The notes below the pieces were generated by a model that searched no databases, had not been told where the DNA came from, and saw nothing but the letters and a program-made list of their open reading frames with translations. DNA of 54,274 nucleotides from Promethearchaeota archaeon (GTDB taxonomy: Archaea > Asgardarchaeota > Lokiarchaeia > Sigyniarchaeales > SOKP01): the NCBI GenBank assembly GCA_008080735.1, contig SHMW01000002.1, positions 1 through 54,274 of the forward strand, read 5' to 3'. Shown here piece after piece: positions 127 through 23,721 of this stretch. Made by a program: the position numbers and the translations under genes. The first letter of the stretch is position 1. Every line of letters begins with the position of its first letter.

Positions 127-1038
127 ATGAAAAAGCATATTCTAATTTCGGCTAAATCTGACCTTCCATTAATAGAAAAAATAATAAACAGACTAAAAAC
201 TGAAAATGAGCTTAAATTAGATATTCATGATCCTATTAAGGATTCTATTCATTTAAAGGATTTCTATGAAAAAATAAATGATTATAATTTAATAATTGCT
301 AAGGTGGCAGGGGAATCTTCAATTGATTTGCTCCATATGGCTCAATTATTTAATATTCCTACGATTAATAACTTATATGCGATATTAAATTGTAAAAACA
401 AAATAGCTTTAGATAGTGCTTTAAGACATGCATTTAAAAGATATGAAAAAGAATTAACAGACTTTAATCTTCCAGAATCTTGGATACATCCATCCCCTCT
501 TAAAGATTTAAATCATTTTAAGGATTGGGCAATTTCAAAATTGCCTTTGGTTTTTAAAAGCCATGATCAACATAATGAATTCTTTCGATTTAATTTTTTA
601 GCACGAGACCAAAGTGAAATTGATGACTTCATATTATCTAAAAAGGATTTTCTTTATTTCGATTTGTATATTCAAGAGTTTATAGATTGTGATGGCATAG
701 ATCGGAAAGTATATGTTGTTGGAGATAAAATCTTTGGGATTCAGAGAGAAAATCCAATTTATATATTTCTTAGAGATAAGCCTAATTCTATAGATGTAGA
801 TGAAATTGAGAGAAAAGAGTTCAAATTAGACGAAAAAATAAAGAAATTGAGTAAAATACTTTCCAAGGAATTAAATCTTTCAATATTTGGTTTTGATTTA
901 GTAAAACCATTAGATAAAAATGGATATTATTTGCTTGATTTAAATGATTTTCCGGGGTTTAGAGGTATAAAAAACATAGATCAAGTAATCGTAGAATATA
1001 TATTAGATTATTTAGAAGGACTTGAAAACAATAAATAG
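127..1038 (+). CDS. ATP-grasp enzyme, ITPK1 (inositol 1,3,4-trisphosphate 5/6-kinase)-like / RimK-like
   Basis: ATP-grasp motifs YIQEFI..DRKVYVVG, IFGFDL and LLDLNDFPGF; the DxNxFPGF ending resembles ITPK1 (DINYFPG) more than RimK (EVNxxPG). Confidence 0.7.
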   Translation: MKKHILISAKSDLPLIEKIINRLKTENELKLDIHDPIKDSIHLKDFYEKINDYNLIIAKVAGESSIDLLHMAQLFNIPTINNLYAILNCKNKIALDSALRHAFKRYEKELTDFNLPESWIHPSPLKDLNHFKDWAISKLPLVFKSHDQHNEFFRFNFLARDQSEIDDFILSKKDFLYFDLYIQEFIDCDGIDRKVYVVGDKIFGIQRENPIYIFLRDKPNSIDVDEIERKEFKLDEKIKKLSKILSKELNLSIFGFDLVKPLDKNGYYLLDLNDFPGFRGIKNIDQVIVEYILDYLEGLENNK

Positions 1039-2541: not shown

Positions 2542-3498
2542 TTAAAATGCAATATTCATGAAGAGCTCATCGATCCCTTGACCAGTTTGAGCGGATGTTT
2601 CAAAAAATTGGCAATTGTGCTTCATTGCTATTTCTTCCGCCCTTGTTCTCATGTGTCCTGCATCATCAATAAGATCCACTTTATTTCCGACTAAAATATA
2701 ATTAACGTCTGATTCCTTATTGAATAGATTTGCCTCATCGAACCAATCACTCACATCGTTGAGAGTTGCTTCTTTTGTATAATCAAATACAATCATGATT
2801 GTTTTCGCATCAAGTTTTTGGTAAAAATATTTCCGAATTTTTGCGAAGGTTTTGAGCCCTCCCATATCAAATAAATAGAGAGTAGATTTGATTTGTTGAG
2901 TTATTTGTAATTCCTTCTCCGCAATCGATATTCCGATTGTAGGCTTATACATTTCAGTGAATTTCTGTTTTGTATATAGGCGAGTTAAGGTGGTCTTCCC
3001 TACTTGGGATGACCCAATTACAAGTACATTTTTCACCGAACCACTATCGGAATTATGCGAATTAAAGCGTAATGTTCCATCCTCTAACAATTTTGGCAAA
3101 GCAGTGTCAATTTCTCTGTCATATAAGGCTAATGAGACTTTTTCGGCCACTAAGTAAGAATAAGGAATATATTTATCAATATCAGAATATGGGTCAGCAA
3201 CTAATACAAACAGAGCGGGTACATCTCCCCCCAGTTCAAGATAAAATAACCGAAACTCGTTTGTATCTAAGGTCCCACTTCCAAAAGAAGTTTCTGCAAA
3301 ACGCTTCACTTTGTTCATGGTTTGATCCAAGATTGCCATGATCGCCCCGATTATTTCCTCATCAAATCCCTTGATTGACTTTTGGGCAATGATTAAACCA
3401 TCCACATCTACTATCAGTGCTGCGGTTAATTCAGGTATGTTTTCAATGAAGTTTTCAAGAAGGTTGTCAAGAGTTTCGGTTTTAATCATTTTACTCAC
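2542..3498 (-). CDS. Roadblock/LC7 domain fused to a Rab/Ras-like small GTPase
   Basis: N-terminal roadblock pattern (AALIVDVDGLIIA); G1 GSSQVGKT, G2 YKPTIG, G3 DMGG, G4 NKVD, G5 SAQ; GTG start. Confidence 0.88.
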   Translation of the reverse strand: MSKMIKTETLDNLLENFIENIPELTAALIVDVDGLIIAQKSIKGFDEEIIGAIMAILDQTMNKVKRFAETSFGSGTLDTNEFRLFYLELGGDVPALFVLVADPYSDIDKYIPYSYLVAEKVSLALYDREIDTALPKLLEDGTLRFNSHNSDSGSVKNVLVIGSSQVGKTTLTRLYTKQKFTEMYKPTIGISIAEKELQITQQIKSTLYLFDMGGLKTFAKIRKYFYQKLDAKTIMIVFDYTKEATLNDVSDWFDEANLFNKESDVNYILVGNKVDLIDDAGHMRTRAEEIAMKHNCQFFETSAQTGQGIDELFMNIAF

Positions 3499-3506
3499 GC
3501 AAATTA

Positions 3507-4064
3507 TTAGGTATCTAAAATAGTATTTATCTTATTAATTCTCTTTTGAATATGCTGCATTGAATACTGAATATGCATTTGCATTTCTTTGATTTCTGAG
3601 AGAATTGATTTGATTGTTGAGATTTTCTTGTTAGAAATATGCTCCTTGCTAATTTTACTATTTACTTTATCAAGGGATATTTTTTTTCCTTCTATTTTTA
3701 GTTTCCGAGATTCCCCAGGATAATCTAAATCCATTCGGCCTTCATCAATTTCGCTAACAATAACTTTAAACTCTTCCGGTTCCCGTCCTTGTTTGATTAG
3801 TTCATAGTTGAAATTATAGAATGGCTTTTTGCTTTTCAGTTTACCCGCCCACGAAGATGCGATATATCGATGAAATAACCGGGATTTCGCTCCCGCCCAT
3901 ATCCATATTAAGCTCATATTTTTATCGATAATTAGGTACACTTCTTGAGGGTCAAATATGGTTTCAGGATTCTTTTTAATGTTCTCTCCAACCACTTTAT
4001 AAATATATTTAGTATATTTTTCACTAGCCATTCTTATTTCCCTCTTATATTTCTCCCTTTTCAT
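3507..4064 (-). CDS. Single gelsolin-domain protein with C-terminal coiled coil (true start may be ATG at 4031)
   Basis: Gelsolin-repeat pattern FDPQEVYLII..LIWIWAG..S and IKQGREPEEF; amphipathic heptad helix at the C-terminus. Confidence 0.75.
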   Translation of the reverse strand: MKREKYKREIRMASEKYTKYIYKVVGENIKKNPETIFDPQEVYLIIDKNMSLIWIWAGAKSRLFHRYIASSWAGKLKSKKPFYNFNYELIKQGREPEEFKVIVSEIDEGRMDLDYPGESRKLKIEGKKISLDKVNSKISKEHISNKKISTIKSILSEIKEMQMHIQYSMQHIQKRINKINTILDT

Positions 4065-4135: not shown

Positions 4136-6085
4136 TTATTGATAGAATTCATCTAAAGCATTCAAAAGCTCATGTAAAGTTTCTATTTGTGGGATCAGGA
4201 TAAATGTGCCTTGAATTTCTATATCAGTAATTATTACATTTGTCGTAATAACTAATGATAATTTTTTCAAGAACCCAATTTCTTGTTTTAACAGATTGAA
4301 TAATTTTTCCGCATTTTCAATGAGCACGTCGGGCGGTTCTGTCATGAAACGAATATCTAAGAGATCTCCGAGAGCAGTCACATAATTGGAGGCTAATATG
4401 TTGCCCAACTCTTCCATTGCACTCTGATATGTATCTGGAAAATCACTAATTGTATCATAGCGTTTGCGAAGGTCAACTTGTTTCTTTTTCTCATCATCAA
4501 CTAAAATAGCTGTCAATTCTATGATATCTCTAACTTCAAAGATCGTTAAAACGGTTGCCCTTGTCTTTCCTTTGACATTACTCCATGAGGTGTAAAGTTT
4601 CTCATTCTTTTGAATTACCTTTTCAGAATATTTGTCTAATTCAACCATCTCGACTGCTGGAATATCTATAGTGACTTTTTTATTAATCATCTTCGCAAGG
4701 GCATTTGCCGCATTCCCAGAACCAATATTACCAACTTCTCTGAGTGCATCTTTCTGACGCTCCGATAAAGCTAAGCTTTTTGCTCCGGCACCTGCTCCTT
4801 TTTCTCCTTTCATTAAAGGTTCATAGCTTATTCCAAGATTCTCAAAAAGATTATACAGTGTATCAAGATCTGGAATAAATAGGAAAACTCCATTAAGTTC
4901 ATAATCGACAACTTGTATTGACGTTTTAATCACCACTATAAAGGTATAGATTGACTCCAATTCTTTTCCTAGAAATCTTCCTAATGAATTTACATCGCTC
5001 ACAGTAAATTCTGGAACACCAGTCATCATTTTAGTATCAGTCAAATCTGCTAACGCTGACGCATAGTGTCCCGCCAATATGTTCCCCATTTCTGTTATTG
5101 TTGATCTTGCATATTCATCAATATCCTCTTTAGATTTCACTTTATCTGGATCTATATCGGAATCTTCGCCTGTGATAGATTTTACCATTTTCATAAGTGG
5201 TGTTAACTCAAATGCTTGGAATATGGTTGATTGAGAAGTGCCCTCAATTTGGGAGAAAATACCACAGACCTTTTGATTTGGACCTCCAAACTGTGCAGCC
5301 AAATTCTCAAATGATATGATGCCTACATTTGTTAGGTCAACATTGATCTTTTTCTTTATAAGTCTAGAAAGCGCAGTAATTGCGTTTCCAGAACCGATAT
5401 TTCCAATCTCCTTGAGCATATCTTCTTGTTCGTCATTTAAGTTAATCTTCTTATCAACATTTCCTGGTTTATCAATGATGTCATAGGTATCCTCGAAAGT
5501 CGAGATAATCTCCTCTTGATCCTTCCTAAAAATTGCCTTCTTTTCCGGTTTGAGAGTAGTAGGTTCTTTTGCCTCTGCTTGTTGTTTTGCTTTTTCCGTT
5601 TGATCTCGTCTATAGTTTTCATTGATATTAAAACTTCTAATAAACGCATCCAGATTTAGTAGAATATAAGTGCTTTCATTAAGAATGCCAATTGCATTAA
5701 TGAATTCAAAATCTAAATCTGTCTCAACAATTTTATTTGTATCGTTGAAAATTGACATTGGCACTTCTTGGACACCGATGACTTCATCAACTAGTATTCC
5801 TAAATTTAGCCCATTTCGCTCTAATAATAGAATTCTTGTGTCCTTATCCATCTCGTAGGTATTTTCTGCTGTGTAGATTTTTCTCCTGAGAGATAATATT
5901 GAATACAGATCGCCTCGTATATCTATCACACCAACAATTGATTTATCCGCGAGTGGAATTGGGATAATTTTTTCACCAGGAATATAAATTTCTTTTACTT
6001 TATTGACCTGTACCAAGTATTTTTCGTTTTTAACCCTAATAATAACGACATTAAGGTTCTTTTTGGTTGATTCTGCTTCGATCAT
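4136..6085 (-). CDS. CheW-CheC-CheC fusion protein
   Basis: N-terminal CheW (IVGVIDIRG, GILVDEVIGV); four CheC ExxN motifs (KEIGNIGSG, TEMGNILAG, REVGNIGSG, EELGNILAS). Confidence 0.92.
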   Translation of the reverse strand: MIEAESTKKNLNVVIIRVKNEKYLVQVNKVKEIYIPGEKIIPIPLADKSIVGVIDIRGDLYSILSLRRKIYTAENTYEMDKDTRILLLERNGLNLGILVDEVIGVQEVPMSIFNDTNKIVETDLDFEFINAIGILNESTYILLNLDAFIRSFNINENYRRDQTEKAKQQAEAKEPTTLKPEKKAIFRKDQEEIISTFEDTYDIIDKPGNVDKKINLNDEQEDMLKEIGNIGSGNAITALSRLIKKKINVDLTNVGIISFENLAAQFGGPNQKVCGIFSQIEGTSQSTIFQAFELTPLMKMVKSITGEDSDIDPDKVKSKEDIDEYARSTITEMGNILAGHYASALADLTDTKMMTGVPEFTVSDVNSLGRFLGKELESIYTFIVVIKTSIQVVDYELNGVFLFIPDLDTLYNLFENLGISYEPLMKGEKGAGAGAKSLALSERQKDALREVGNIGSGNAANALAKMINKKVTIDIPAVEMVELDKYSEKVIQKNEKLYTSWSNVKGKTRATVLTIFEVRDIIELTAILVDDEKKKQVDLRKRYDTISDFPDTYQSAMEELGNILASNYVTALGDLLDIRFMTEPPDVLIENAEKLFNLLKQEIGFLKKLSLVITTNVIITDIEIQGTFILIPQIETLHELLNALDEFYQ

Positions 6086-6120: not shown

Positions 6121-6984
6121 TTATTTAAATTTATTCTTAAGCATAATTCCTTTCCAAATTAACTCAATTTGAGACTTTCCATCATAAGACTCGGAAAAGA
6201 ACCCTTGCTGCTTATATATCGCTATTTGGCCACCATTGGAGTATTTATAAATATAATCGAGTAAATTTTCTATGCTACTGAAATTAAAACCCGCGACCTC
6301 CATTTCTTTTTCGTTATTGACGAGAACGATCAAGAGGTCTTCTCCATTAAATGGCTTTTCTAATTCATTCCATTCAACCCATAGTTCTTGTTCAACATCA
6401 TTCCCTCTTACAATAAATTTATCATCTATGGGTATATCTCTATAAGTTTTATAGGTGGAAAAAATAACTTTATTAGGAATCTTTCCAATTTCTTTCGAAA
6501 ATTTTGCTATTTTTTCTCCGGCATTAAAATAATATTCTTTATCAAGTATGTAATTACAGTTTATAAAAATATGTCTATTCTCCTTAATTTCTATAATATA
6601 GTCTATAAAATCATCTTTTTTTGTATCCGCTCTTATATGTACCGACTTTATTGAAATATCTTTTTGAGTTTTTAAGAATTTGAAAAATCGCCATTTTATT
6701 GCATCTTTATCATTCTTTTCTTTGCTGATAAATGTTTCATAGATTTTCTTGAATTGATCTTTATTAAGTTTCGAGAGATCCGCATCTTTTTCATTTTTAA
6801 AGTCCACTTCTATGAATGAACCATCGAATGGTGATTTATTCTCTTGTTTTAGTTTTTTTAGGCTAACTTCCCCCAAAAATAGCGCCAATTCCAGTTCTAA
6901 GATATTTGGGACTATTTCTTCAATCAGTGCAAATAAGGTTTCTTTCGATTTATCCAATAAAGTTTTATAATATTGAAAATTCAT
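6121..6984 (-). CDS. Hypothetical protein within the chemotaxis gene run
   Basis: 287-aa ORF with AGAGG upstream and 17/35-nt gaps to neighbours; no confident motif. Confidence 0.75.
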   Translation of the reverse strand: MNFQYYKTLLDKSKETLFALIEEIVPNILELELALFLGEVSLKKLKQENKSPFDGSFIEVDFKNEKDADLSKLNKDQFKKIYETFISKEKNDKDAIKWRFFKFLKTQKDISIKSVHIRADTKKDDFIDYIIEIKENRHIFINCNYILDKEYYFNAGEKIAKFSKEIGKIPNKVIFSTYKTYRDIPIDDKFIVRGNDVEQELWVEWNELEKPFNGEDLLIVLVNNEKEMEVAGFNFSSIENLLDYIYKYSNGGQIAIYKQQGFFSESYDGKSQIELIWKGIMLKNKFK

Positions 6985-7001: not shown

Positions 7002-10000
7002 TTAGCTTAATAGGTATGATTCTAATTTTTCTTGATCCATAATTTCTCCATCTTTGCTTTTCACATAATATCGTATTTCTCTTTCTTGATATGGGAGAAT
7101 CGATTCTACTGTGAATGAAATCATATCCGTTCCTTCAATTTCCGACTCCATAATTTCATATTTAGTATTAGCAGAAACAATTTCAAATGATTTAGAAATA
7201 GTATCATTGATGTCAATATCATTAACTTCGATATTTGAATTATTATTAATGATGATGCTTATTGCAAACTCATCAACATCTCTACCTGGAAATATTTCTT
7301 TCCCTATCAATAAATCTCTCCTCTTATGGGCAATATCTAACTTCGGAAGCTTTTCTGTTTCCAGAGACTCGTTCAAGTAATAGAAATTCTCGGGGCTCCG
7401 CTTTTCTTGTGGATAATAATGGGTGACTTCGAGTGGGAATTGATACGTTTTTTTGTGATTTGGTTTAATTGCCTTAAAGGGATATGAAATTTTAAGAAAC
7501 TCATCTACATCAATCAACACTTTTGATTTAATATTATCTAAATTGAGACTAATCTTAACATCGTGAGGAATTGAGTGATCCAGATTGTCAGGCACTACTT
7601 CAATGCTCACATGGTCTGAAATGTCTCTCCCCGAAGAAGTTGATATTTGGAATTGAGTTAGATCTTCTGGAGGAGCAAAATCTGCTGGAATAATATCTTT
7701 TACCATAATCCCTTTCATTGGGGTTGTTCCTATATTTTTAACAGTGATCTTGCTTTGAATTTCCGCTTCTTCAAAGGATTTAATTTCAGATTCAGAGAGC
7801 TTTTTATCCAAATGAATATCGATTATTTCGAATACCGATTCTTGTAATCTTAGATCAATAACAGCATTCTTTTTGACTGAATGAGTAATTGAATATTCTA
7901 GTTTTCTGAAAAATTTTGGTTCATTTTCATCTGCGACTTCCCATTCTTCACTTATAAATTTCTCTTGGGGTGCCAATAATTTTCCCCCATTTGAATTAAA
8001 ATCTATATCTAAATATTTTGTTTCTTTATCCTTATCCAAAACTAATATAGATTTTAATTCCATATCGATCTCACTATTATTTTTAAAAATTAGAGAGCAT
8101 CTCCATTTATTTGGCTCTGTCTCTTTCTCCTTTATCTGCATCGCATGCATCGCATGGGAATAGCCACGGAGGTGATCAATCTCTAAATTTGACATTATTT
8201 GGTTTTTATAAATATATGAAAGTTGAATATTCCCTGTTCCTATCATTTGTCTATTTTTAGGGCTGATACTAGTATATACAATAATTTCTGCTTTCTTTCC
8301 TGGTTCTAAAGAATTTATGGAAAAAATAAGGCTTCCTTTTTGAATTTCCACATCTGAAACCGATGAGCTATCATACTTAAAGTCCCTAAATTCCTCAGAA
8401 AATTGTTTTGCTATCCTTAGATCTTCTACAAGATCCTCTGAAGTATTTTCTATAAAGATTGAATACTTTAACCGATTCTCTTGATTAAATAAAAGAAAAT
8501 AGTTATCTCTTACAAATTCTCCTGTTATTTCATGATATCCTTCAAGAATTTTTTCTTTTCTTTCTTTTTCTTTTTGAGAGATTTCTTCTAATTTTTTATT
8601 GAGCTTATTTTCTTTTTGCTCATTAAGCTCAACAATCTTCGCCCGAAGAGAATTTATTTCAGATTCGACATTTTCTTTCTTTTCTTGCCATTCATCACTT
8701 TTTGTATTAATATTTTTCAAATTCTCTTGATTCTCTTTCAGTTGGGCCTTAAGTTCCTTAATTCGGGCATCATAAGTATCCTTAATTTTTTCAAGATGTG
8801 AAATTAAATTTTTTGTATTTTGGAGCTTTTCTTCAAGAGTTTCAATAGTGTCTTTCTTGGAATTATCGATCTTATTGTTTTGTGATTCCAACTCATTTTT
8901 CTTCTTGTCTTCAAGATCTTCTATATTGTCTTCCAAATCATCGATTTTGTCTTCCAAATCCTTTTGTCTCTCTGATTCCTCATCAGCTTTCTTTTCGGCT
9001 TCGTCAAGCTTTTTTTCAATCTCCTCAAATTGTGTTCGTTTATCGTTGATTTGTACATCAAATTCTTTTTCAACGATATTTATTTTTGCTTCATCTTCAA
9101 TATCTTTAGTCGCTTTTTTCTTCTCCTTTTCCAGGTTTTTAATTTCCTTCTTTTTTTCTTTTAGTTCTGTCTTTAATTTATCTTGTTTTTCTTCCCATTC
9201 TTCTTCTTTTTTCTTTGCCTTTTTATTATTCTCAATGCAATTCTCCATTTCTTTTCTCAATTTCTTTATCTTTGGATCATAGTGATTCAATATGTTTTCT
9301 ATATTCACCGCTTTCTTTTCTGAATATTCTGTCTTCACTTCTGGAATTCTTTCCGTGATCTGTTCCAATTTTTCTTTCGCGTTTTTTAGTTGGGTTTCGG
9401 TCTCTTCTTTAAATTGATTTTTATTAAGATATTTAGAAATGTTTTTTTCTTTGTATTTTTCTTTATCTTCAATTAAACTATCTATTTCTTTCTTCAATAA
9501 TCCTGCTTGATTGAGGAGTTTCTTGTTTTTTTGAGAAAGTTTTGAGATTTTGTCTAAAGCTTCATCTAATTCATTGTTTTTCAGATGTATTTTATCCTCA
9601 ACGGAACTGATTTTATGTCCATAAGACATTTTAATCTTTTTTTTTGTAGTTTCTCTCTTTTCTTGTATCTCTTGTTCAATTTTTTTTAGCTTTTTCTGCT
9701 TTAGCTTTGCTCCTAGATCATCGGTTTGAATATTCATTACTTTAATTTTTTCAAAAACTTTGATTGGATTGACTAAATCCTCAGAATCTTTTATTTGATA
9801 ATTGACTTTTTTATTTGTTTCTGGTTCAAAATTCCCCAGATTGATGATTTTATCTTTTTCTAATGAGAGGTTATCATCGGAACTATAATCTAATTTAACA
9901 TCCCAAATCCTATCTTTCTTTGAATTATTTAGAACGTTTATACTTCCTGTTCCAATAAAATTGATTAATGTACCATTTTTGCTATATTCATATTTTAAAT

Positions 10001-10172
10001 TCTCACTGTTGCTTACGAATACTTCTGATTTGGCAAAACCAAATTGTTTCTCAACATCTGATCTTCGTTCCTTAAGTAGATCAATTTCTTCTACATGTTC
10101 CAAGGGCGCTCCTAAAAATGCAGGAGCTTGACTAGAGACCAATTCATCTTTACTAATTTTTTTAAATCCCAT
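7002..10172 (-). CDS. Large soluble protein: beta-rich N-terminus, ~400-aa Lys/Glu coiled coil, several Ig-like/DUF11-like beta-sandwich repeats
   Basis: 1056-aa ORF; heptad K/E-rich region ~aa150-545; repeats of ITVKNIG..GIMVKDIIP and IIINNNS..DIDINDTI type; no signal peptide or TM helix. Confidence 0.75.
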   Translation of the reverse strand: MGFKKISKDELVSSQAPAFLGAPLEHVEEIDLLKERRSDVEKQFGFAKSEVFVSNSENLKYEYSKNGTLINFIGTGSINVLNNSKKDRIWDVKLDYSSDDNLSLEKDKIINLGNFEPETNKKVNYQIKDSEDLVNPIKVFEKIKVMNIQTDDLGAKLKQKKLKKIEQEIQEKRETTKKKIKMSYGHKISSVEDKIHLKNNELDEALDKISKLSQKNKKLLNQAGLLKKEIDSLIEDKEKYKEKNISKYLNKNQFKEETETQLKNAKEKLEQITERIPEVKTEYSEKKAVNIENILNHYDPKIKKLRKEMENCIENNKKAKKKEEEWEEKQDKLKTELKEKKKEIKNLEKEKKKATKDIEDEAKINIVEKEFDVQINDKRTQFEEIEKKLDEAEKKADEESERQKDLEDKIDDLEDNIEDLEDKKKNELESQNNKIDNSKKDTIETLEEKLQNTKNLISHLEKIKDTYDARIKELKAQLKENQENLKNINTKSDEWQEKKENVESEINSLRAKIVELNEQKENKLNKKLEEISQKEKERKEKILEGYHEITGEFVRDNYFLLFNQENRLKYSIFIENTSEDLVEDLRIAKQFSEEFRDFKYDSSSVSDVEIQKGSLIFSINSLEPGKKAEIIVYTSISPKNRQMIGTGNIQLSYIYKNQIMSNLEIDHLRGYSHAMHAMQIKEKETEPNKWRCSLIFKNNSEIDMELKSILVLDKDKETKYLDIDFNSNGGKLLAPQEKFISEEWEVADENEPKFFRKLEYSITHSVKKNAVIDLRLQESVFEIIDIHLDKKLSESEIKSFEEAEIQSKITVKNIGTTPMKGIMVKDIIPADFAPPEDLTQFQISTSSGRDISDHVSIEVVPDNLDHSIPHDVKISLNLDNIKSKVLIDVDEFLKISYPFKAIKPNHKKTYQFPLEVTHYYPQEKRSPENFYYLNESLETEKLPKLDIAHKRRDLLIGKEIFPGRDVDEFAISIIINNNSNIEVNDIDINDTISKSFEIVSANTKYEIMESEIEGTDMISFTVESILPYQEREIRYYVKSKDGEIMDQEKLESYLLS

Positions 10173-10225: not shown

Positions 10226-12313
10226 TTATTGTTCTATTTCTACTAAGCGTACAAGATCCTTCCTAAGGGAAGATATCAGATTTATGACATCTATTATCAA
10301 GCAGATAGAACCGTCACCAGTAATAGCAACACCTAATATGGATTGAAACTTTGAATATTTTGATTTAAACGGTTTAATAACCACTTCCATTTGTTGCAGA
10401 ATTTTATCAACAATGAATATTGCTGAATTGTGCTCATCCTTTTGACATAATATCGCAATTTTCTTTTTAGAATTATCATTGTTTATATTCAATTCTGATG
10501 ATTCATTTTCCGAAGAGAAATCAAAATATTCTCCTAATCTTATTACAGGGACCAATTCATTCGCGACTTTATAATGTTCCACTCCTTTTACATAATCAAT
10601 TTTTTCTCTATCATAGAAGTAAATCTGTTTGATATTATCTATGGGTACAGCAAAGAGATCTCCACCTACTTCGAATAATTGCGCCTTAAGAATTGCTCGT
10701 GTGAATGGGACGTCAATAGAAAATGTAGTTCCTTTACCAGGAGTGGTATAAAGATTAATCGACCCTCCTAATTCTTCTATCTTCTCCTCAACTATCGCTA
10801 AACCCATACCTCTGCCAGAAATTTGATTAGCAGCCCCTAAAGTTGAAAATCCTGGTTTAAAAATCAAATCCTTAAGGTCCTGATCTGTAAGTTTTTCAGC
10901 TTCCTCTGGAGTATATAATCCATTATTCACTGCTTTTCTTCGAATTCCCTCAAAATCTAACCCTCTTCCATTATCTTCCACAGTAATGTTAATTGATCCG
11001 GCTTTTCTTGTGGTTATCAGTTTTAATGTTCCTATTTCATCCTTTCCTTTTCTTTTTCTTTCTTTTGGGGTTTCAATTCCGTGATAAATCGCATTTCTCA
11101 GTAAATGGATAAGAGGGCTATTCAATTCTTCCAAGACGGTACGATCTATTTCCACATCTAAACCTCTAAGAACAAATTTTATCTTTTTCCCCGTATCCTT
11201 TGCAACATCCCTAACTAGTCTCCGATATCTCCTGAAAGTTTTTTCCACTCTCACTAATTTCAGTCGAAACACGATTTCTTGGATTTCTAAGAACAATTTA
11301 TCCATATTATCGAAAACCCGTGTTTCTTCTCTTCCTCTAGTTTCCTTCAATTGCTGGGAGATTTGATTCTTAAGAATAACCAGCTCGCCAAAGTAATCCA
11401 TTAATCTCTCCAGAGTTTCAATATCTACTTTCACTGAAGTTATTGTGCTTAATTCCTCTCCAAAATCATCATCTATTATAGATGAAATTCCTGTCTCAAA
11501 TGTTTCTTCAGCTTGATTGGTTTTTTGAGGTTCAGAAGCTGCCTTTTCTGCGCTAAACTCTTCGACATAACTATAAAATTCATTAGAACTAATTTCTTCT
11601 ATTTCTCTGCTTTCGATTTCTAGAATTTCGTCAATAGTAGCAGCGATTTTATCTTTTGTTTCTTTGGTCATAAAATAGATTTCAAAATCGTTGTCAAAAT
11701 TCCCCTTTTCTAATTTATCGGGGCTTGGGTTACTTGAACAAATCCGCCCAATCTCATTAAGCGCCCTGAATATTATAAATAACCTAACTTTTTTAAAAAC
11801 ACAAGTTGCTTGAATTTCAATTGCGATTTTATAAAAATTATAATTCTCTTTCTTCTCTTTTAATTTTTCTGGTGAAATTGGCTTATAAAACGTAATATCG
11901 TATTCTGACTTTTTATCCGCCTTATAATCTTTGAAAGTTTCTTCAATTTCCTGTAATACTTGTGCGTCTAAGTCTTTCTCGTTCCCTTTTTTGATACTAT
12001 TAACCAAATTCCTAATAACGTCATGGCTCTCAAATAAAAGATTGATATATTCGTCCTTCTTGTCTTTTCTTTTATTATATTTTTTGTTTTCGTCCAGAAA
12101 ATTTTCAAATATATGACAAAATTTAGAGAATCTGTCAAAACCTACCATCGCTGTTGAGCCCTTCAATGTATGGAATGCAAAGTAGAGATTTTGGATAGGA
12201 TCATCATCTTTGAAATTCTCCTCAAGGTCTAAGATATTTTTCTCAACCTTATTTACTAACTCTTCAGCCTCGTCAATAAATAATTTCATCTCTTTATCTT
12301 TTTTCGATGACAT
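10226..12313 (-). CDS. cheA: Chemotaxis histidine kinase CheA
   Basis: Hpt FHTLKG, P2 domain, HLLRNAIYHG, VEDNGRG, IFKPGFST, SGRGMGL, C-terminal CheW-like P5. Confidence 0.97.
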   Translation of the reverse strand: MSSKKDKEMKLFIDEAEELVNKVEKNILDLEENFKDDDPIQNLYFAFHTLKGSTAMVGFDRFSKFCHIFENFLDENKKYNKRKDKKDEYINLLFESHDVIRNLVNSIKKGNEKDLDAQVLQEIEETFKDYKADKKSEYDITFYKPISPEKLKEKKENYNFYKIAIEIQATCVFKKVRLFIIFRALNEIGRICSSNPSPDKLEKGNFDNDFEIYFMTKETKDKIAATIDEILEIESREIEEISSNEFYSYVEEFSAEKAASEPQKTNQAEETFETGISSIIDDDFGEELSTITSVKVDIETLERLMDYFGELVILKNQISQQLKETRGREETRVFDNMDKLFLEIQEIVFRLKLVRVEKTFRRYRRLVRDVAKDTGKKIKFVLRGLDVEIDRTVLEELNSPLIHLLRNAIYHGIETPKERKRKGKDEIGTLKLITTRKAGSINITVEDNGRGLDFEGIRRKAVNNGLYTPEEAEKLTDQDLKDLIFKPGFSTLGAANQISGRGMGLAIVEEKIEELGGSINLYTTPGKGTTFSIDVPFTRAILKAQLFEVGGDLFAVPIDNIKQIYFYDREKIDYVKGVEHYKVANELVPVIRLGEYFDFSSENESSELNINNDNSKKKIAILCQKDEHNSAIFIVDKILQQMEVVIKPFKSKYSKFQSILGVAITGDGSICLIIDVINLISSLRKDLVRLVEIEQ

Positions 12314-12344: not shown

Positions 12345-12731
12345 TTATTTATTATTTAATAGAGTTCTTTCTAATACTTCCAAAACTTGCTCATTTTTAA
12401 AGGGCTTTTGAATAAAATCTTTTGCTCCTTTTTTGGCAGCTTCCAAAACAAGTGCTTCTTGCCCTAATGCTGAAACGACGATTATTTTCGCATTCTCATC
12501 AAGTTGTAACAATTCCTCGATAGTTTCAATACCGCCTTTTACTGGCATAACCAAATCCATTGTGACAAGATCCGGTTGTACCTCTTGGTATTTTTTAATT
12601 GCCTCTTCTCCGTCTCCTGCTTCTGCAACAACCTCACTGAAATCAGTTTTATTTATTATCTTTTTTAAGATATTTCTGGTAAACTGGGCATCATCTACGC
12701 ACATTATCTTTTTTTTATTATTTTTTGGCAT
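12345..12731 (-). CDS. cheY: Chemotaxis response regulator CheY
   Basis: VDD, TMDLVMP, SALGQ and KPF motifs; 128 aa; adjacent to cheA. Confidence 0.95.
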   Translation of the reverse strand: MPKNNKKKIMCVDDAQFTRNILKKIINKTDFSEVVAEAGDGEEAIKKYQEVQPDLVTMDLVMPVKGGIETIEELLQLDENAKIIVVSALGQEALVLEAAKKGAKDFIQKPFKNEQVLEVLERTLLNNK

Positions 12732-12756: not shown

Positions 12757-13347
12757 TTAATTTAAAGATTTAAGTTCTTTTTTTATCATTAATTGCTCAG
12801 TTTCGGTTAAAATTTTGCTTAAGTCCATCAATATTCGTGGTCTGTCCTCAAATTTAATAACACCTTTAATATATTCGATACTGATGCTGGTTTGGAAGAT
12901 CCCCCCCAAATCAACAATATCTTCAGTTTTAATTTGAGAAACATTGTAGATCTTATCCACGTAGAAACCAATATTTCTATTATTGACATTCACAATAATT
13001 ATGTATGTATTTTTGGAGTCTGAATCTTCTTTAGTTTGAGTTGGTGCTTTGGGCTTTTTCTTTTCTTCTCCTTCTTTTTGAGCTAATAGTTCACTTTTAG
13101 TTTTATAAAGGCGATAATCATCTAAATCCAATTTTTTTCGCAGATTTATTACATGGATAATCTCGCCTCTGTAATTATAAATACCATCGATGAAATCTAA
13201 ACTCTTTGGAAGTCTCCTAATTTGCCCTGCTTTGATAATTTCTTTTACATCCAGTAAATCAATTGCGAATTGTTCCCATCCAACTTCAAAAACAATAATA
13301 GAAACGTTTTCTCGCTCCTCATAAATTTCGTTCTGCATTTTTTTCAC
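12757..13347 (-). CDS. cheW: Chemotaxis coupling protein CheW (with charged insert)
   Basis: VKEII, GIYNYRGEIIHVINLR, IGFYVD. Confidence 0.92.
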   Translation of the reverse strand: MKKMQNEIYEERENVSIIVFEVGWEQFAIDLLDVKEIIKAGQIRRLPKSLDFIDGIYNYRGEIIHVINLRKKLDLDDYRLYKTKSELLAQKEGEEKKKPKAPTQTKEDSDSKNTYIIIVNVNNRNIGFYVDKIYNVSQIKTEDIVDLGGIFQTSISIEYIKGVIKFEDRPRILMDLSKILTETEQLMIKKELKSLN

Positions 13348-13365: not shown

Positions 13366-14181
13366 TTATAGTTTAAAATATTGATTTAGTATATCTTCAA
13401 AATCTTCAAATGGAGAAATGTCTCCATTAAAATTCTTTAATTCGTTATCATAATTGCTGAAAAATTCATCAACAATCAAATACATATATCTTTTAAGTAA
13501 TTGATTAACTTTTTCGACAAGATATGCAAAAATAATATTTTTTTTAATTATTACATAAAATCTTTGATTTCCAAATACAATCTCTTTTAAATTCCCTCCC
13601 GATTCCTTTCCAATAATTTCTTTTGAAAAGGTCAATAAGGCAGATATAAATCCACTTATTTGGACATCTTTTTTCGCTAAATTTGCTTTCTTCTTGTCAA
13701 TTTTTGAAAAATATGGACTCCCGGAAGGGTTTAATATAAATATTCCTAACAAACCTTCGCTTCTTGGAATCTCCAAATATTCATTACATGATTCCTTAAC
13801 TTCTCCAGCGTCCATATCGGCGTTATATTGATTAAAAATCTTCCTTGAAACTAAATATAATTTTGTATAATTTACTTCACTTTCCTTATCGTCCATAAAA
13901 ATATTAACTATCTTGTTCTGGTTGCTATCTTCATAAAAATGAATAATAATAATATAATCATCTAAAGGAATAGTCGAATTCCCCTTAGTTTTTTGGGTAA
14001 TTTCACTTTTACATAACTCCATGATGTTTTGGATCAGGGGTACATCGAATCCCTTTTTATAAATAATATCATAATCGTGAGTCTTTCCTTCATTACAGAA
14101 TTTTAACATGCAAAATCCCATTAATTCAATAATGTTTTCCTTAAAGTCCATGTTCGATGCTTTATTTTTCATACCGATCAT
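13366..14181 (-). CDS. Longin-domain protein (C-terminal Mon1/Fuz/TRAPP-type longin; possibly a second degenerate N-terminal longin)
   Basis: IFILNPSGSPYF ... ISGFISALLTFSKEI ... FF.NY...L..FNGDISPFEDFEDIL, the pattern typical of Asgard longin domains. Confidence 0.72.
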   Translation of the reverse strand: MIGMKNKASNMDFKENIIELMGFCMLKFCNEGKTHDYDIIYKKGFDVPLIQNIMELCKSEITQKTKGNSTIPLDDYIIIIHFYEDSNQNKIVNIFMDDKESEVNYTKLYLVSRKIFNQYNADMDAGEVKESCNEYLEIPRSEGLLGIFILNPSGSPYFSKIDKKKANLAKKDVQISGFISALLTFSKEIIGKESGGNLKEIVFGNQRFYVIIKKNIIFAYLVEKVNQLLKRYMYLIVDEFFSNYDNELKNFNGDISPFEDFEDILNQYFKL

Positions 14182-14286: not shown

Positions 14287-15393
14287 TTAACTAGCCTCTT
14301 CTAGCTTTATTTTCTTTTTGCTTATCGTTTTGATTTTAGGTTTATCTGCGCTCCCTTTGACTCTTATACCTTCGGGTTCTGATTTGCTTTTTTGTTTTGC
14401 TTTCTTTTTTGTTTTTTTTGCGGTCTTTCCGTGAATATCTAATGATTCTTGTAGCTCCAATGCCAGTTTCTCCAGTCTCCTGCCTGTCGCCGAAATCTCG
14501 TCCATCGAAACTACTTGCTGATCTATTTCTGCTTTTACTTGTTCAAGCGCTCTTTCGTTTACTTCTTCATGCTCTTCGGCCTCTGAGAGCTCTTCTGTGA
14601 CTTCATCAATCGCTTGGACTGTAACTTCGATAAGTTTTTCAATATTTCGAATTTTTTCACTGGAACGTGCCACTGATTTTCTTGATTCTTCTGAAAGTTT
14701 TCGGACCTCATCCGCTACAACTGCGAATCCTCTGCCGTGCTCTCCTGCTCTTCCCGCTTCAATACTCGCGTTCAATGCGAGTAAGTTTGTCTCCTCAGAA
14801 ATACTGGTAATTATATCCATAACATCATCAATATCAGTTGTATGATCTAGAATCTCGTGGGCATTCTTATCAATGCCAGCCGCGTGCCTGTCAACTAATT
14901 TCAATGCTTTGACCTGTCCTTGGGCGGCTTTAACAAGCTTCCCTATTGTATCATCAATCTCGTGGGCATGTCTATCAACTTCCACTGCGCTTGCTTCTAA
15001 TTCTGCCGAGATATTTGCTACATTGATCGCAATCTCTTCCGCATTATCGACTAAATTCTCTAAGGAATGTTCGTGTTCTATGATTCTATTCTCAATAGTG
15101 ACGACAAACCCCATCACCATTATTAATCCTACATAAAACATGCTGAACGCTTCACCCATCATATCGAAAGCTAAAACGTCTGTGGAAAATCCATATTTGT
15201 CCAAGGCATTTGCAAGAGTATACATTGACCCACCGCAAGCAATTAAAAACCAGAAAATATCACTCAATGTTTTTCTTTTGAAATATATCCTCAGAGCTAT
15301 AATTGCAGAAAATATTGCAAAAATGAGAGCAATGAGGTTTAAAGTTCCATCTCTGTAATCTGCCATCAATTCCGCGGATATCTGTAGAAACAT
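14287..15393 (-). CDS. Methyl-accepting chemotaxis protein with 3 N-terminal TM helices and basic C-terminal tail
   Basis: Hairpin-tip signature [32 protein letters not shown]; three hydrophobic segments in aa20-100. Confidence 0.95.
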
Positions 15394-20098: not shown

Positions 20099-22060
20099 TT
20101 ATAATTTAATTTCTTTTTTATTGGATCCAAATTGGATAAGGATTCGCTTTTTCTTGATATTCAATTTGATATCTCGAGGGTATGCTCCTCCAATATGTTC
20201 TTTTTGTATAGAAATATTATATTTTTTTAATTCTAACTTTAATTTCTCCAGAATCCGTTCTACCGAATTATATTTTTTATTGAATATCTGAGCCCCACCA
20301 ATTATACACGCAGTTAGTTTTTCTGAAGCTCCATTTATTAACATTTTTTTTGTTAAGAATGGGACACAAAACTGAGCATATTGATGTTTATTGGTTAGCT
20401 CATCTTTTTTCTGGCCCTTTCTTGGTTTCAAATACATTATGTGAGACATAGCATAGATTTGATTCAAATTATCACAGAGAATTAAAATATATGTTGATCC
20501 AATTCCATTTATAGAAATTTTCTTTGGAATGTGTTTTGAATTATCTTTTGAGGAAGATATGACATATTGGCCAAGGGGTAAAATATGGTCCTCCTCTTTG
20601 TATCCATATTTCAAGACTTTAGCCTCTGATATATGATTTTCTGACGATCCTTTTCTGTTTTTGTATTTTTCAAAGTTTTTTATTTTGTGTTGGAATTTTT
20701 CTACTTGCTTTTTGAACATTTCCTTCTCAATACGAAGCAATTCATTTTTCATTTCATAGCTCTCCCATTTCTTTTTGATAAATCTTCTCTCTTTTTCAAA
20801 TAAGAGCAGGGTATTTTCAAAATCTTTTTTCTGTTCTTGAAATTCTTTTTTTTCCTCTTCGAACTTAAGGATAGCTTCATTTAACTTTTTTCTCTGTTGT
20901 TTAAGAAAGAATAGTTCTTTATTTATTCTAGTTCTAAATTTTTCCAATTCTGCTATCTGTTGCTCATAAATTTCTGATTTTGAAGGTTTTGAAAGAATAT
21001 TTGATATATTTATCAAATTTTTAGGTTTTTTAATTGGGTTTGACTTAATAATTTCTTTATCTGGTTCTTCTTCTGGACTTTCCTTTTTTATTGAAATTTC
21101 AGAAGGTTGTAAATCATCATCTTTTTCTTGAAGGCTTATAGTTTTGTACTTATCCATTATCTTGTCATTAATCCTCGTCTCTAAATTTGCCAGATCTTTT
21201 AATCGCTGAATACTCTTTTCATTTCCTTCTTTCAAATTAGGTAATTCCCCTTTTACATAAATATGGTTGGTTGGATCTACTAATTTGAACGTTTTTTGGC
21301 CATTCAATCGCTCCGTTTTTCCCAATATTAAAAAACCCCCATCATTCAAATACGTTTTTAGATTTCTTATTAAATGGTTTCTCGAAAGCAGATTAATATA
21401 AATAATAAAGTTCCGGCATAAAATAATATCGTATTTTTGTGATTTTTCATGGCAGATAGTAATATCTTCATTGATGAATTCTACTTTATTTCGAAGAGCT
21501 TGGTTTATCTGGTATTTTGTTGTTGAATTAGAAATCTTGGTAAAATATTTTTTTAAATATTGAGGGGGTATCTCGTGAAGCGCATGTTTCCCGTAAATCC
21601 CCTTTTTTGCTTTTTTTATTGCTTGAGAATTAATATCGGATGCTACAATTTTATACTCTGGGAAATCAGAATTTTCAGCTTTTAACTCTTCAAATAGAAT
21701 TGCCAATGAATATGGTTCTTCTCCATTTGCACAAGGACAAGACCATACTTTTATTAAGCTATTCTTAGTCAATTGATATTTTTCTAATAACTCCCCAATT
21801 CTCTTAAAAATTTCATAATTTCTGAAGAAATATGAATAATTTATTGTAAAATTGTCTAAGAATCGCTCTATTTCCAAGGGATTCGTCTTAAGATATTCGA
21901 AATATTTTTCTTCTGTCTTTAGATCTAAAGAACGAATTCTGGCCCTTATCCTTTTTTCAATTAATCTTTCTTGATAATATTCGAATTTAATCCCCGTATA
22001 CCTATTTATTTCTTGGAGTATTTTTTCGTAGTAATCTTTCTGTATTTTTATAGAACCAAT
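20099..22060 (-). CDS. cheR: CheR methyltransferase - coiled coil - CheD-like fusion (start uncertain; frame open to 22096, ORF track starts at 21877)
   Basis: In-frame upstream CheR N-domain (RYTGIKFEYYQERLIEKRIRAR..YLKTNP), TINYSYFFRN, WSCPCANGEEPYS, DIILCRN; C-terminal CheD-like GIGST..AMSHIM..IIGGAQIF..HIGG..R. Confidence 0.88.
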   Translation of the reverse strand: MGSIKIQKDYYEKILQEINRYTGIKFEYYQERLIEKRIRARIRSLDLKTEEKYFEYLKTNPLEIERFLDNFTINYSYFFRNYEIFKRIGELLEKYQLTKNSLIKVWSCPCANGEEPYSLAILFEELKAENSDFPEYKIVASDINSQAIKKAKKGIYGKHALHEIPPQYLKKYFTKISNSTTKYQINQALRNKVEFINEDITICHEKSQKYDIILCRNFIIYINLLSRNHLIRNLKTYLNDGGFLILGKTERLNGQKTFKLVDPTNHIYVKGELPNLKEGNEKSIQRLKDLANLETRINDKIMDKYKTISLQEKDDDLQPSEISIKKESPEEEPDKEIIKSNPIKKPKNLINISNILSKPSKSEIYEQQIAELEKFRTRINKELFFLKQQRKKLNEAILKFEEEKKEFQEQKKDFENTLLLFEKERRFIKKKWESYEMKNELLRIEKEMFKKQVEKFQHKIKNFEKYKNRKGSSENHISEAKVLKYGYKEEDHILPLGQYVISSSKDNSKHIPKKISINGIGSTYILILCDNLNQIYAMSHIMYLKPRKGQKKDELTNKHQYAQFCVPFLTKKMLINGASEKLTACIIGGAQIFNKKYNSVERILEKLKLELKKYNISIQKEHIGGAYPRDIKLNIKKKRILIQFGSNKKEIKL

Positions 22061-22206: not shown

Positions 22207-23721
22207 TTAATAATATGATTTCTGAACCAAGAAATCTCTAATTTTATAATTTGGGAGTATTCTATCAACTACTCCCTCTTCGATTGCGAATTTTGGCATC
22301 CCAAACAGAATTGCTGTTTCTTCTGATTCACTAATAGTAATTCCACCATTTTCATGAATCTTTTTCATTCCATTTACGCCATCCTCCCCCATTCCAGTAA
22401 GAAGGATAGCTATAACTTTATTTTTATATATTTCCGAGGCAGATTCAAATAAAACATCCACAGAAGGAACACATGAATTAACTGGTTTTCCTTTGTAAAG
22501 TATAATACATGGGCTTTTTTTTTTAGTGCTAATGCTAATATGTCTTCCACTAGGTGCAAAATATACGGTGCTAGGCCTTAAAATTTCATAATGTTCTGCA
22601 ACTTTTACCTTAATCTCACTATTCTTATTTAAATACTGTGCGAGTGGAGAGATAAAATGTTCATTTAAATGTTGGACGACAATGATTGGATAGGGAAAAT
22701 TTCGTGGTATACCTTGAAGGATCATTCTCAATGCTTTAGGTCCCCCGACACTTGCACCTATTACCACGATTTTAGAATCGATTTTTGGAATCTTTCTCCC
22801 TGATATAGTTTTAAAATATTTTTTAGGTTGGCTATCTTCTATTCTGATTTTTTGAGTTCTGATATCTTTCTTATGCTCAATTTCCTTAAGGATACTCTGT
22901 TTATGAACTGACTTATCAGATTTTTTCTCTCTTCTCTTCTCTTTCCTTAATAGGTTTTGATATAATACATCAATATTATCCTTATCATCAAAAGATGTAC
23001 TTTTACCCCGCTTTTGTATATCGCTTTCAATTTTTTTTGGTTTATCAAGATTTTCATGGAGTCTATTTTTATATTCTTTTTGTAATTCCGATTGCCCTTC
23101 GATATCTTCCTTACTTATTTTATTATCCGTTACTTGTTTAGGTTTTTTTTTATATTCTACATAATTTTCCGCCTTAAAGACATTTTTACTTTGTATTTTA
23201 GAGGGTTTTATCTCTTTAAGATATTTTCCAAATTCAAAAACCTCGTCCACCCACTGTTGCCGAAAAGGTAAATTCCCCGTCGAATCTTTTTCATATTCCA
23301 TCTTACCATAAATTTTATTAAATCGGGAATTTGATGCTAATAAAATCTTCTCAATAAGATTCTTTCTGAAATCAGGGAGTTTTTTCGCACCTAAAGTCCC
23401 AGGTTTCAGTATATAATCAAATGCTCCAATCAATAATGCTTGGACGGACGAATCCAGAGTTTGAGGGCTAATACTCGACAAGATGATCGTGGGTGTAGGG
23501 TTTTCTGCCATGATTCTTCTAAATGCCTCAAGACCGTTTATTTTTGGCATCATTAAATCCAATAGAATTACATCAGGATTTTGATAAATCGCTTTCTTTA
23601 TGGCTTCTTTACCATTTTTGGCAGTTCCAATTAGGACAATCTCATCAGAAGAGCTTAAAATTTCGGAGATTCTTTTCCTTAAGAACGCGGAATCATCAGC
23701 GATTAATACGCGTGTTTTCAA
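22207..23721 (-). CDS. cheB: Chemotaxis methylesterase CheB with extended charged linker
   Basis: Receiver ADDS/DLMMP; esterase triad motifs GASVGG, VVQH, LTGMGEDG; FGMP. Confidence 0.95.
   Translation of the reverse strand: MKTRVLIADDSAFLRKRISEILSSSDEIVLIGTAKNGKEAIKKAIYQNPDVILLDLMMPKINGLEAFRRIMAENPTPTIILSSISPQTLDSSVQALLIGAFDYILKPGTLGAKKLPDFRKNLIEKILLASNSRFNKIYGKMEYEKDSTGNLPFRQQWVDEVFEFGKYLKEIKPSKIQSKNVFKAENYVEYKKKPKQVTDNKISKEDIEGQSELQKEYKNRLHENLDKPKKIESDIQKRGKSTSFDDKDNIDVLYQNLLRKEKRREKKSDKSVHKQSILKEIEHKKDIRTQKIRIEDSQPKKYFKTISGRKIPKIDSKIVVIGASVGGPKALRMILQGIPRNFPYPIIVVQHLNEHFISPLAQYLNKNSEIKVKVAEHYEILRPSTVYFAPSGRHISISTKKKSPCIILYKGKPVNSCVPSVDVLFESASEIYKNKVIAILLTGMGEDGVNGMKKIHENGGITISESEETAILFGMPKFAIEEGVVDRILPNYKIRDFLVQKSYY

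Follow-up and report, generated by a model that had tools for sequence, protein, structure and literature searches.

A gelsolin-fold protein inherited with a chemotaxis operon of Asgard archaea: a candidate connector of chemosensing and actin

A chemotaxis operon in a lokiarchaeial genome includes a short gene whose product resembles gelsolin, raising the question of whether chemical sensing in Asgard archaea is connected to their actin skeleton. Cultured Asgard archaea rely on Lokiactin-driven protrusions to crawl, and five gelsolin homologues co-precipitate with Lokiactin; the word chemotaxis is never used in the report of these findings (PMC13716822). Some cultured Asgard archaea also encode chemotaxis genes, and their receptor arrays have been shown, whereas the cultured P. 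syntrophicum has no che genes (PMC9834061); the 2022 paper on L. ossiferum describes che genes and arrays and does not name an output. The literature that we searched yielded neither a statement of the output of Asgard chemotaxis pathways nor a link between a gelsolin and a che operon. From sequence analysis and structure modelling, we propose the gelsolin-fold protein as a concrete but unproven candidate for coupling chemosensing to the actin cytoskeleton.

The gene was found in a 54,274-nt stretch of contig SHMW01000002.1 (the window), within a run of genes that all lie on the minus strand in the order methyl-accepting chemotaxis protein (MCP), 271-amino-acid orphan, CheW, CheY, CheA, a 1056-amino-acid protein, 287-amino-acid orphan, CheW-CheC-CheC fusion, gelsolin-fold protein, and Roadblock-GTPase fusion (Table 1).

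Table 1. Features of the gelsolin-fold gene and of its operon in the window
Feature	Position	Strand	Basis
Gelsolin-fold CDS	3507..4031 (frame open up to ATG 4064, 185 aa)	-	ORF list, homologue starts, profile match
GAGGG Shine-Dalgarno-like box	4040..4044	-	Sequence; role inferred
Gelsolin-fold domain, residues 17-109	3738..4016	-	phmmer, alignment, AlphaFold2, Foldseek, profile, VIA
Linker, lysine-rich, residues 118-144	3633..3713	-	pLDDT, sequence, family lengths
C-terminal heptad helix, residues 145-184	3513..3632	-	Alignment, AlphaFold2, heptad analysis
Roadblock/LC7 + Rab-like GTPase fusion, downstream	2542..3498	-	Pfam; closest solved structure Thor Rab 7EZB
CheW-CheC-CheC fusion, constant upstream neighbour	4136..6085	-	Pfam; synteny
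Orphan 287-aa protein	6121..6984	-	Synteny; AlphaFold2
1056-aa protein, DUF11 (PF01345; CLIPPER in precomputed locus tables) + long coiled coil	7002..10172	-	Pfam; synteny
CheA	10226-12313	-	Pfam; synteny
CheY	12345-12731	-	Pfam; synteny
CheW	12757-13347	-	Pfam; synteny
Orphan 271-aa protein	13366-14181	-	Near head of gene run
MCP, head of gene run	14287-15393	-	Pfam

The frame is open for 185 codons (3507-4064, minus strand; ORF list and reading of the sequence), and the gelsolin pattern quoted in the first-pass annotation (DPQEVYLIID...IWIWAG...S...A...L...I.QG.EP.EF) is indeed present in it, at residues 38-99; residue numbers throughout are those of the 185-residue frame. Homologues were found in 81 clusters, a conservation that rules out chance as the origin of the gene. 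In all but the nearest of these clusters the start is equivalent to Met12 (MASEKY...), and in the window a GAGGG box, read from the sequence, stands 8 nt ahead of the ATG at 4031. Taken together, these two features make a 174-residue protein starting at that ATG the most likely product, and the profile match of the gene in its own genome spans 3513-4031. The box is Shine-Dalgarno-like, and its function is presumed from sequence. The gap of 8 nt that had been reported between this gene and the GTPase gene holds for the GTG at 3498; it is 17 nt if counted to the first ATG of the GTPase ORF, at 3489.

Searches of Pfam and NCBIfam assigned the protein to no family, returning only sub-threshold noise (e.g., DUF7809 and Nop), and the Pfam Gelsolin model, PF00626, gave no match at E<=1. 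That model is built on repeats of the eukaryotic type, and the miss lowers the claim to membership in the Pfam family only. Searched with phmmer against sequences in the PDB, the protein matched gelsolin-domain proteins exclusively: 2DGel3 (1.8e-6) and ProGel (2e-5) of Thorarchaeota, a Heimdall 2DGel (3.6e-4), and CapG (0.014). A profile built from 31 family members gave E=1e-8 for ProGel.

The structure model, computed with AlphaFold2 on the 31-member family alignment (pLDDT 84), has strands at residues 21-25, 28-31, 42-47, 52-57, and 86-91; its long helix spans 63-77 and its short one 97-108, and the central beta-sheet lies between the two as in the gelsolin/cofilin fold. The best 50 Foldseek matches in the PDB are without exception gelsolin domains; 27 have E<=0.001, and the best among those listed is ProGel (E=1.4e-6, target-normalised TM-score 0.74, rmsd 2.1 A). 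VIA likewise aligned ProGel (PDB 7C2F) over 85/88 residues with Z=12.1 and placed 114 chains at Z>=8; no Sec23/24 chain is among the Foldseek or VIA matches listed for the model. The D/W/G core of the fold, known as the 'DWG motif' (PMC7444086), is present: D47, W56, and G58 are invariant in the 31 sequences, and W56 and G58 align with the W and G of ProGel. The family proteins are 37-83% identical overall, and against that background the long helix, S61-K77, is near-frozen, with S61, L63, F64, R66, Y67, A69, G74, K75, L76, and K77 nearly invariant. Judged by sequence and model, the head of the protein is a single gelsolin-fold domain. The first-pass annotation had proposed a single gelsolin repeat and had asked for structure prediction as a check; phmmer, the family profile, AlphaFold2, Foldseek, and VIA all confirm the repeat, and the prediction returned a gelsolin fold with ProGel as its best match.

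The published scheme of Asgard gelsolins comprises ProGel, 1DGelX, and 2DGel (PMC7444086, PMC9433394). The window protein, as its sequence and model place it in that scheme, is a short 1DGelX with a head closest to ProGel. It has the 1DGelX architecture of one gelsolin domain (residues 17-109) followed by a non-gelsolin C terminus of coiled-coil type (residues 145-184), and the 1DGelX of Thorarchaeota likewise continues from one gelsolin domain into a predicted coiled-coil region (PMC7444086). That protein is about actin-sized on a gel, roughly twice the length of the window protein, and acts on actin without Ca2+ control (PMC7444086). Thorarchaeota ProGel is the best match both by profile and by structure, and the two proteins are alike in having a single gelsolin domain without Ca2+ sites and in the L-F and A-x-K-L positions of the long helix; they are only about 22% identical. 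ProGel, however, is a bare domain of ~90 residues and has not been reported in a chemotaxis operon, whereas in the window protein a linker and a conserved heptad helix of 40 residues follow. Asgard 2DGel, eukaryotic gelsolin G1, and CapG share the fold and the W-x-G core, but belong to proteins of two to six domains that are regulated by Ca2+.

An exhaustive search left a gap in score between the orthologues, which extend down to about 1e-17, and other gelsolins beyond. With targets of all lengths included, it recovered no fused forms of the subfamily, the longer matches being multi-repeat or 1DGelX-type gelsolins. A quick maximum-likelihood tree of 132 domains placed the operon-linked proteins in one group (SH-aLRT 98, branch length 0.95), separate from a sister class and from long 1DGelX-like proteins. 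By these sequence comparisons, the operon-linked proteins are a distinct Asgard subfamily. The genome that carries the window also encodes two 1DGelX-like proteins (355 and 438 residues), placed apart from the subfamily on the tree, together with a two-domain gelsolin and additional ORFs with gelsolin domains; at least four gelsolin-domain genes exist beside that of the operon. It encodes Lokiactin as well, a protein that is 96-100% identical within the family.

Members of the sister class are 170-240 residues long and consist of a gelsolin head, a linker, and a C-terminal helix with a different conserved tail motif (proteins P0102-P0121); one paralogue (L101:8685-9182, G276:C1) scores 20.5 bits against the Pfam Gelsolin cut-off of 21. 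Its gene follows two genes for unknown proteins of 139 and 330 residues and precedes a gene for a FIST-domain protein. The two upstream genes were considered as Roadblock proteins, an assignment that was dropped when BLASTP to the Roadblock domain of the window returned nothing. With the sister class and the long 1DGelX-like proteins carrying other tails, the design of a gelsolin head plus a helix has been used repeatedly.

The first-pass annotation had described a basic linker and a coiled coil of ~35 residues behind the gelsolin repeat. The linker (residues ~118-144) is lysine-rich in the window protein; its mean net charge across the family is just +0.7. It varies in length from 31 to 65 residues across the family and is predicted to be disordered (pLDDT<50 at residues 124-140 of the AlphaFold2 model). 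As for the coiled coil, a heptad helix is supported: the model has one helix at residues 145-184, and hydrophobic residues at 151, 154/155, 158, 161, 165, 169, 172, 176, 179, and 182/183 follow the 3-4 repeat through five unbroken heptads. Eight tail residues are nearly invariant (E157, I158, E160, H164, Y167, H171, R175, and I179). Six of them (E157, E160, H164, Y167, H171, and R175) make up a second conserved stripe, which is polar; it exceeds the need of a generic coiled coil and suggests a specific interface, either with another copy of the helix or with a partner. A hidden Markov model of the tail helix, run against the six-frame translation of the same genome, found the gelsolin-fold gene itself and no second copy.

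Control by Ca2+, which the first-pass annotation had proposed to test, is unlikely. In the alignment to 2DGel3, residues F64-H65 stand opposite a D-E pair at the start of the long helix, which we take to be type-II Ca2+ ligands in gelsolin numbering. Across the family L63, F64, and L76 are invariant and H65 nearly so, and leucine or phenylalanine occupies the places at either end of the long helix where acidic Ca2+-site residues would be expected. Nor would Ca2+ control be expected from the best match, ProGel, which is reported to be without Ca2+ sites (PMC7444086).

Conservation of gene order was examined in 38 species-representative loci from public Asgard metagenome-assembled genomes of about ten genera, the denominators below being the loci with enough flanking sequence. 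The CheW-CheC-CheC gene lies directly upstream of the gelsolin-fold gene in 34 of 34 loci; the 287-residue orphan is syntenic in 33 of 34 and CheA in 26 of 27, and 24 of 31 loci have the Roadblock-GTPase gene no more than 6.5 kb downstream. CheR-CheB-CheD-CheC is inserted between the gelsolin-fold gene and the GTPase gene in most loci. The placement of the gelsolin gene between cheWCC and the GTPase, as first annotated, is thus general on its upstream side, but adjacency to the GTPase is a feature of the clade of the window. In a closed 3.3-Mb chromosome (L014, CP070831.1; G189:C1) the operon is split, with CheA at 0.356 Mb and the other half, running from CheW-CheC-CheC through the gelsolin-fold gene and CheR onward to the GTPase, at 1.44 Mb.

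Among 400 Asgard genomes searched, orthologues of the gelsolin-fold protein (cut-off E<1e-40) are present in 41, all in the class of the window, and every one of the 41 carries the same Loki-type CheA. That CheA occurs in 46 genomes. Of the five that appear to be without the gelsolin-fold gene, two show CheA right at a contig start and two are drafts of 260 and 560 contigs, so that a contig break could hide the gene in these four. The fifth, G128 (10 contigs), has an operon truly without it, and the gene is therefore not indispensable to the operon. This variant (L100, L104; G128:C5:926000-956000) has a separate CheW and a single CheC, has no Roadblock-GTPase adjoining, and keeps a DUF11 protein of 680 residues and an orphan of 286. 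No such gelsolin was found in 39 other Asgard genomes that have a distant class of CheA.

An orthologue of the Roadblock-GTPase (~320 residues) is nearly confined to the genomes that carry the gelsolin-fold gene and is present in about 32 of the 41. Because it is missing from about nine carriers, including four of the five in genus g5, the gelsolin is the more constant member of the system. A longer paralogue of the Roadblock-GTPase (~440-residue frame, 42-49% identical; e.g., G234:C63:19952-20860 and G271:C31:30515-31423) was seen in genomes lacking both the gelsolin-fold gene and the Loki-type CheA.

The usual targets of archaeal chemotaxis were also sought. CheF (PF04283) was found in one of the 400 Asgard genomes and in none of the 41 carriers, that of the window included, and the window protein itself has no match to PF04283. 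Archaellin was not found in the genome of the window, nor above cut-off in any of the 135 genomes of the family. A platform protein of the T2SSF/ArlJ type was likewise not found in the genome of the window, where T2SSE gave only a weak partial match. This genome is 93% complete, so the motor genes are better described as not found than as proven absent; the pattern is uniform.

A gene fixed in the che operon of genomes in which CheF, archaellin, and a type-IV platform protein were not found may reasonably be given a role in output or coupling. We tentatively interpret the protein as a ProGel-type gelsolin with one domain and no dependence on Ca2+, in the form of a short 'gelsolin domain + coiled-coil X', that would be a dedicated part of a Loki-type chemosensory system without an archaellum. 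Its head would bind Lokiactin through the nearly invariant long helix, much as actin is bound by ProGel, cofilin, and gelsolin G1; we infer this binding because the closest relatives bind actin, Lokiactin is 96-100% identical, and the exposed helix is conserved to the same degree. The tail helix might form oligomers or dock on one of the operon proteins that are constantly inherited with it, CheW-CheC-CheC being the best-placed candidate. Head and tail together would physically connect the chemosensory array, or its turnover of CheY-P, with actin filaments and so bias the growth or retraction of protrusions.

The fixed position after CheW-CheC-CheC and the strict co-occurrence with one type of CheA speak for such coupling, and the near-invariance of S61-K77, together with the near-identity of Lokiactin, fits a conserved partner surface. 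In Thorarchaeota, both ProGel and 1DGelX bind actin and regulate it (PMC7444086). Against coupling stand the failure of PF00626 to match, the operon of G128 that is without the gene, and the weakness of ProGel itself as a binder of G-actin (Kd about 337 uM; PMC7444086). Weighing these points, we give the coupling adaptor as a whole, that is, a dedicated chemosensory gelsolin linking array and actin, slightly less than an even chance. The wider proposition, that archaellum-less Asgard archaea use bacterial-type chemotaxis to steer actin protrusion and crawling, with the gelsolin-fold protein coupling a CheW-CheC-CheC array to Lokiactin, we regard as improbable on present evidence. The first-pass annotation had seen in this gene the most direct hint of the output of the system. 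Its fixed membership in operons of genomes in which no motor was found makes that view reasonable, but an output role is not separable from that of an array tether or of an adaptor that does not bind actin.

Gelsolin-like domains without actin binding do exist, those of Sec23/24 being examples, and this counts against coupling as well. The Sec23/Sec24 domain has the gelsolin fold without known actin binding and sits inside large coat subunits. The window protein could by analogy be a fold put to new use, an adaptor within the chemosensory complex that does not bind actin and whose possible partners include CheC, CheD, CheY, and the orphans. The lack of a Pfam Gelsolin match would agree with this, as would the long branch that separates the subfamily from other Asgard gelsolins, the differences of helix residues L63, F64, R66, Y67, and K75-K77 from 2DGel and gelsolin G1, and the retention in the same genome of no fewer than four further genes with gelsolin domains to serve general actin functions. 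Yet the closest relatives, by sequence as well as by structure, are Asgard gelsolins that bind actin; ProGel has the same L-F and A-x-K-L positions in its helix, and the fold core with its D/W/G positions is intact. On balance we consider this reuse of the fold unlikely, if still a serious competitor.

The same case for actin binding that underlies the coupling adaptor would serve a protein that binds Lokiactin merely to place or hold chemoreceptor arrays, for example in protrusions, with the output perhaps running through the GTPase or another orphan. The gene always follows that for CheW-CheC-CheC, an array-bound protein, and its presence is more constant than that of the GTPase gene, two facts that would suit a tether; however, the sequence holds nothing to separate a tether from an output role, and no gene for a positioning ATPase or the like was seen. 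We rate such a tether as distinctly unlikely. Operons can carry unrelated genes, and one relative (G128) is without this one, but an ordinary actin regulator riding in the operon without any coupling to chemosensing is very hard to reconcile with a position held in 34 of 34 loci from about ten genera, with the restriction of the gene to genomes that have the Loki-type CheA among the 400 searched, and with its staying beside CheW-CheC-CheC when the operon is split (L014), and is highly improbable.

Returning to the coupling adaptor, its closest functional analogy may be the Frz pathway of Myxococcus xanthus, which acts on the Ras-like MglA and the Roadblock protein MglB. There, too, a Che-type pathway steers surface movement by way of a small GTPase, a Roadblock protein, and the cytoskeleton, without a rotary motor. 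The likeness is one of function only: the Frz/Mgl system has no gelsolin and no sequence relationship to the gelsolin protein, and Roadblock and GTPase are here fused, Rab-like, and not constant. CheF and the ArlCDE switch of the archaellum (PMC7534055, PMC9126983) occupy the same logical place, between Che signalling and a motility structure, although CheF belongs to an unrelated family and is absent from the genome of the window and from 399 of the 400 Asgard genomes.

What the locus offers is a gelsolin fold that is inherited with one type of che operon, in genomes in which no rotary or type-IV motor was found, and hence a specific and testable candidate for coupling. If chemotaxis were coupled to Lokiactin in this way, a prokaryotic two-component pathway would be wired to a eukaryote-like cytoskeleton. 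If the protein turned out not to bind Lokiactin, it would be a clear case of the gelsolin fold reused for signalling.

Several other features of the operon were recorded. In the window, CheR and CheD are fused in one ORF of 592 residues (20099-21877, minus strand), and CheB (22207-23721, minus strand) has a long insert between its receiver and esterase; unlike their counterparts in most related loci, these genes lie apart from the main operon, 16-20 kb away from the gelsolin-fold gene. For the 271-residue orphan there is no match in Pfam, NCBIfam, or PDB sequences. The 287-residue orphan gave a confident AlphaFold2 model (pLDDT 86, pTM 0.85) with a small C-terminal beta-sandwich, in which fold searches found only a weak core resembling PD-(D/E)xK nucleases (Foldseek E>=0.019, VIA Z<=7.0), and it was placed in no family. 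In-frame stops noted in this orphan at three loci proved to be true stop codons inside over-extended tblastn matches. Residues ~148-556 of the 1056-residue protein, a coiled coil of ~400 residues, align only in near relatives (L004-L006), and for most loci the alignment is confined to residues 1-147 and ~557-1056; this stretch thus looks like a clade-specific insertion.

At the downstream end of the cluster, many loci (L008-L012 and others) have an extra gene for a CheY-like receiver directly after the Roadblock-GTPase gene, about 1.1 kb after the GTPase start. The window has at that place a gene for a low-molecular-weight phosphotyrosine phosphatase (1888-2433). Convergent to the cluster is a gene for an ATP-grasp protein (127-1038, plus strand) that matches the inositol 1,3,4-trisphosphate 5/6-kinase domain (PF05770, 5.9e-14).
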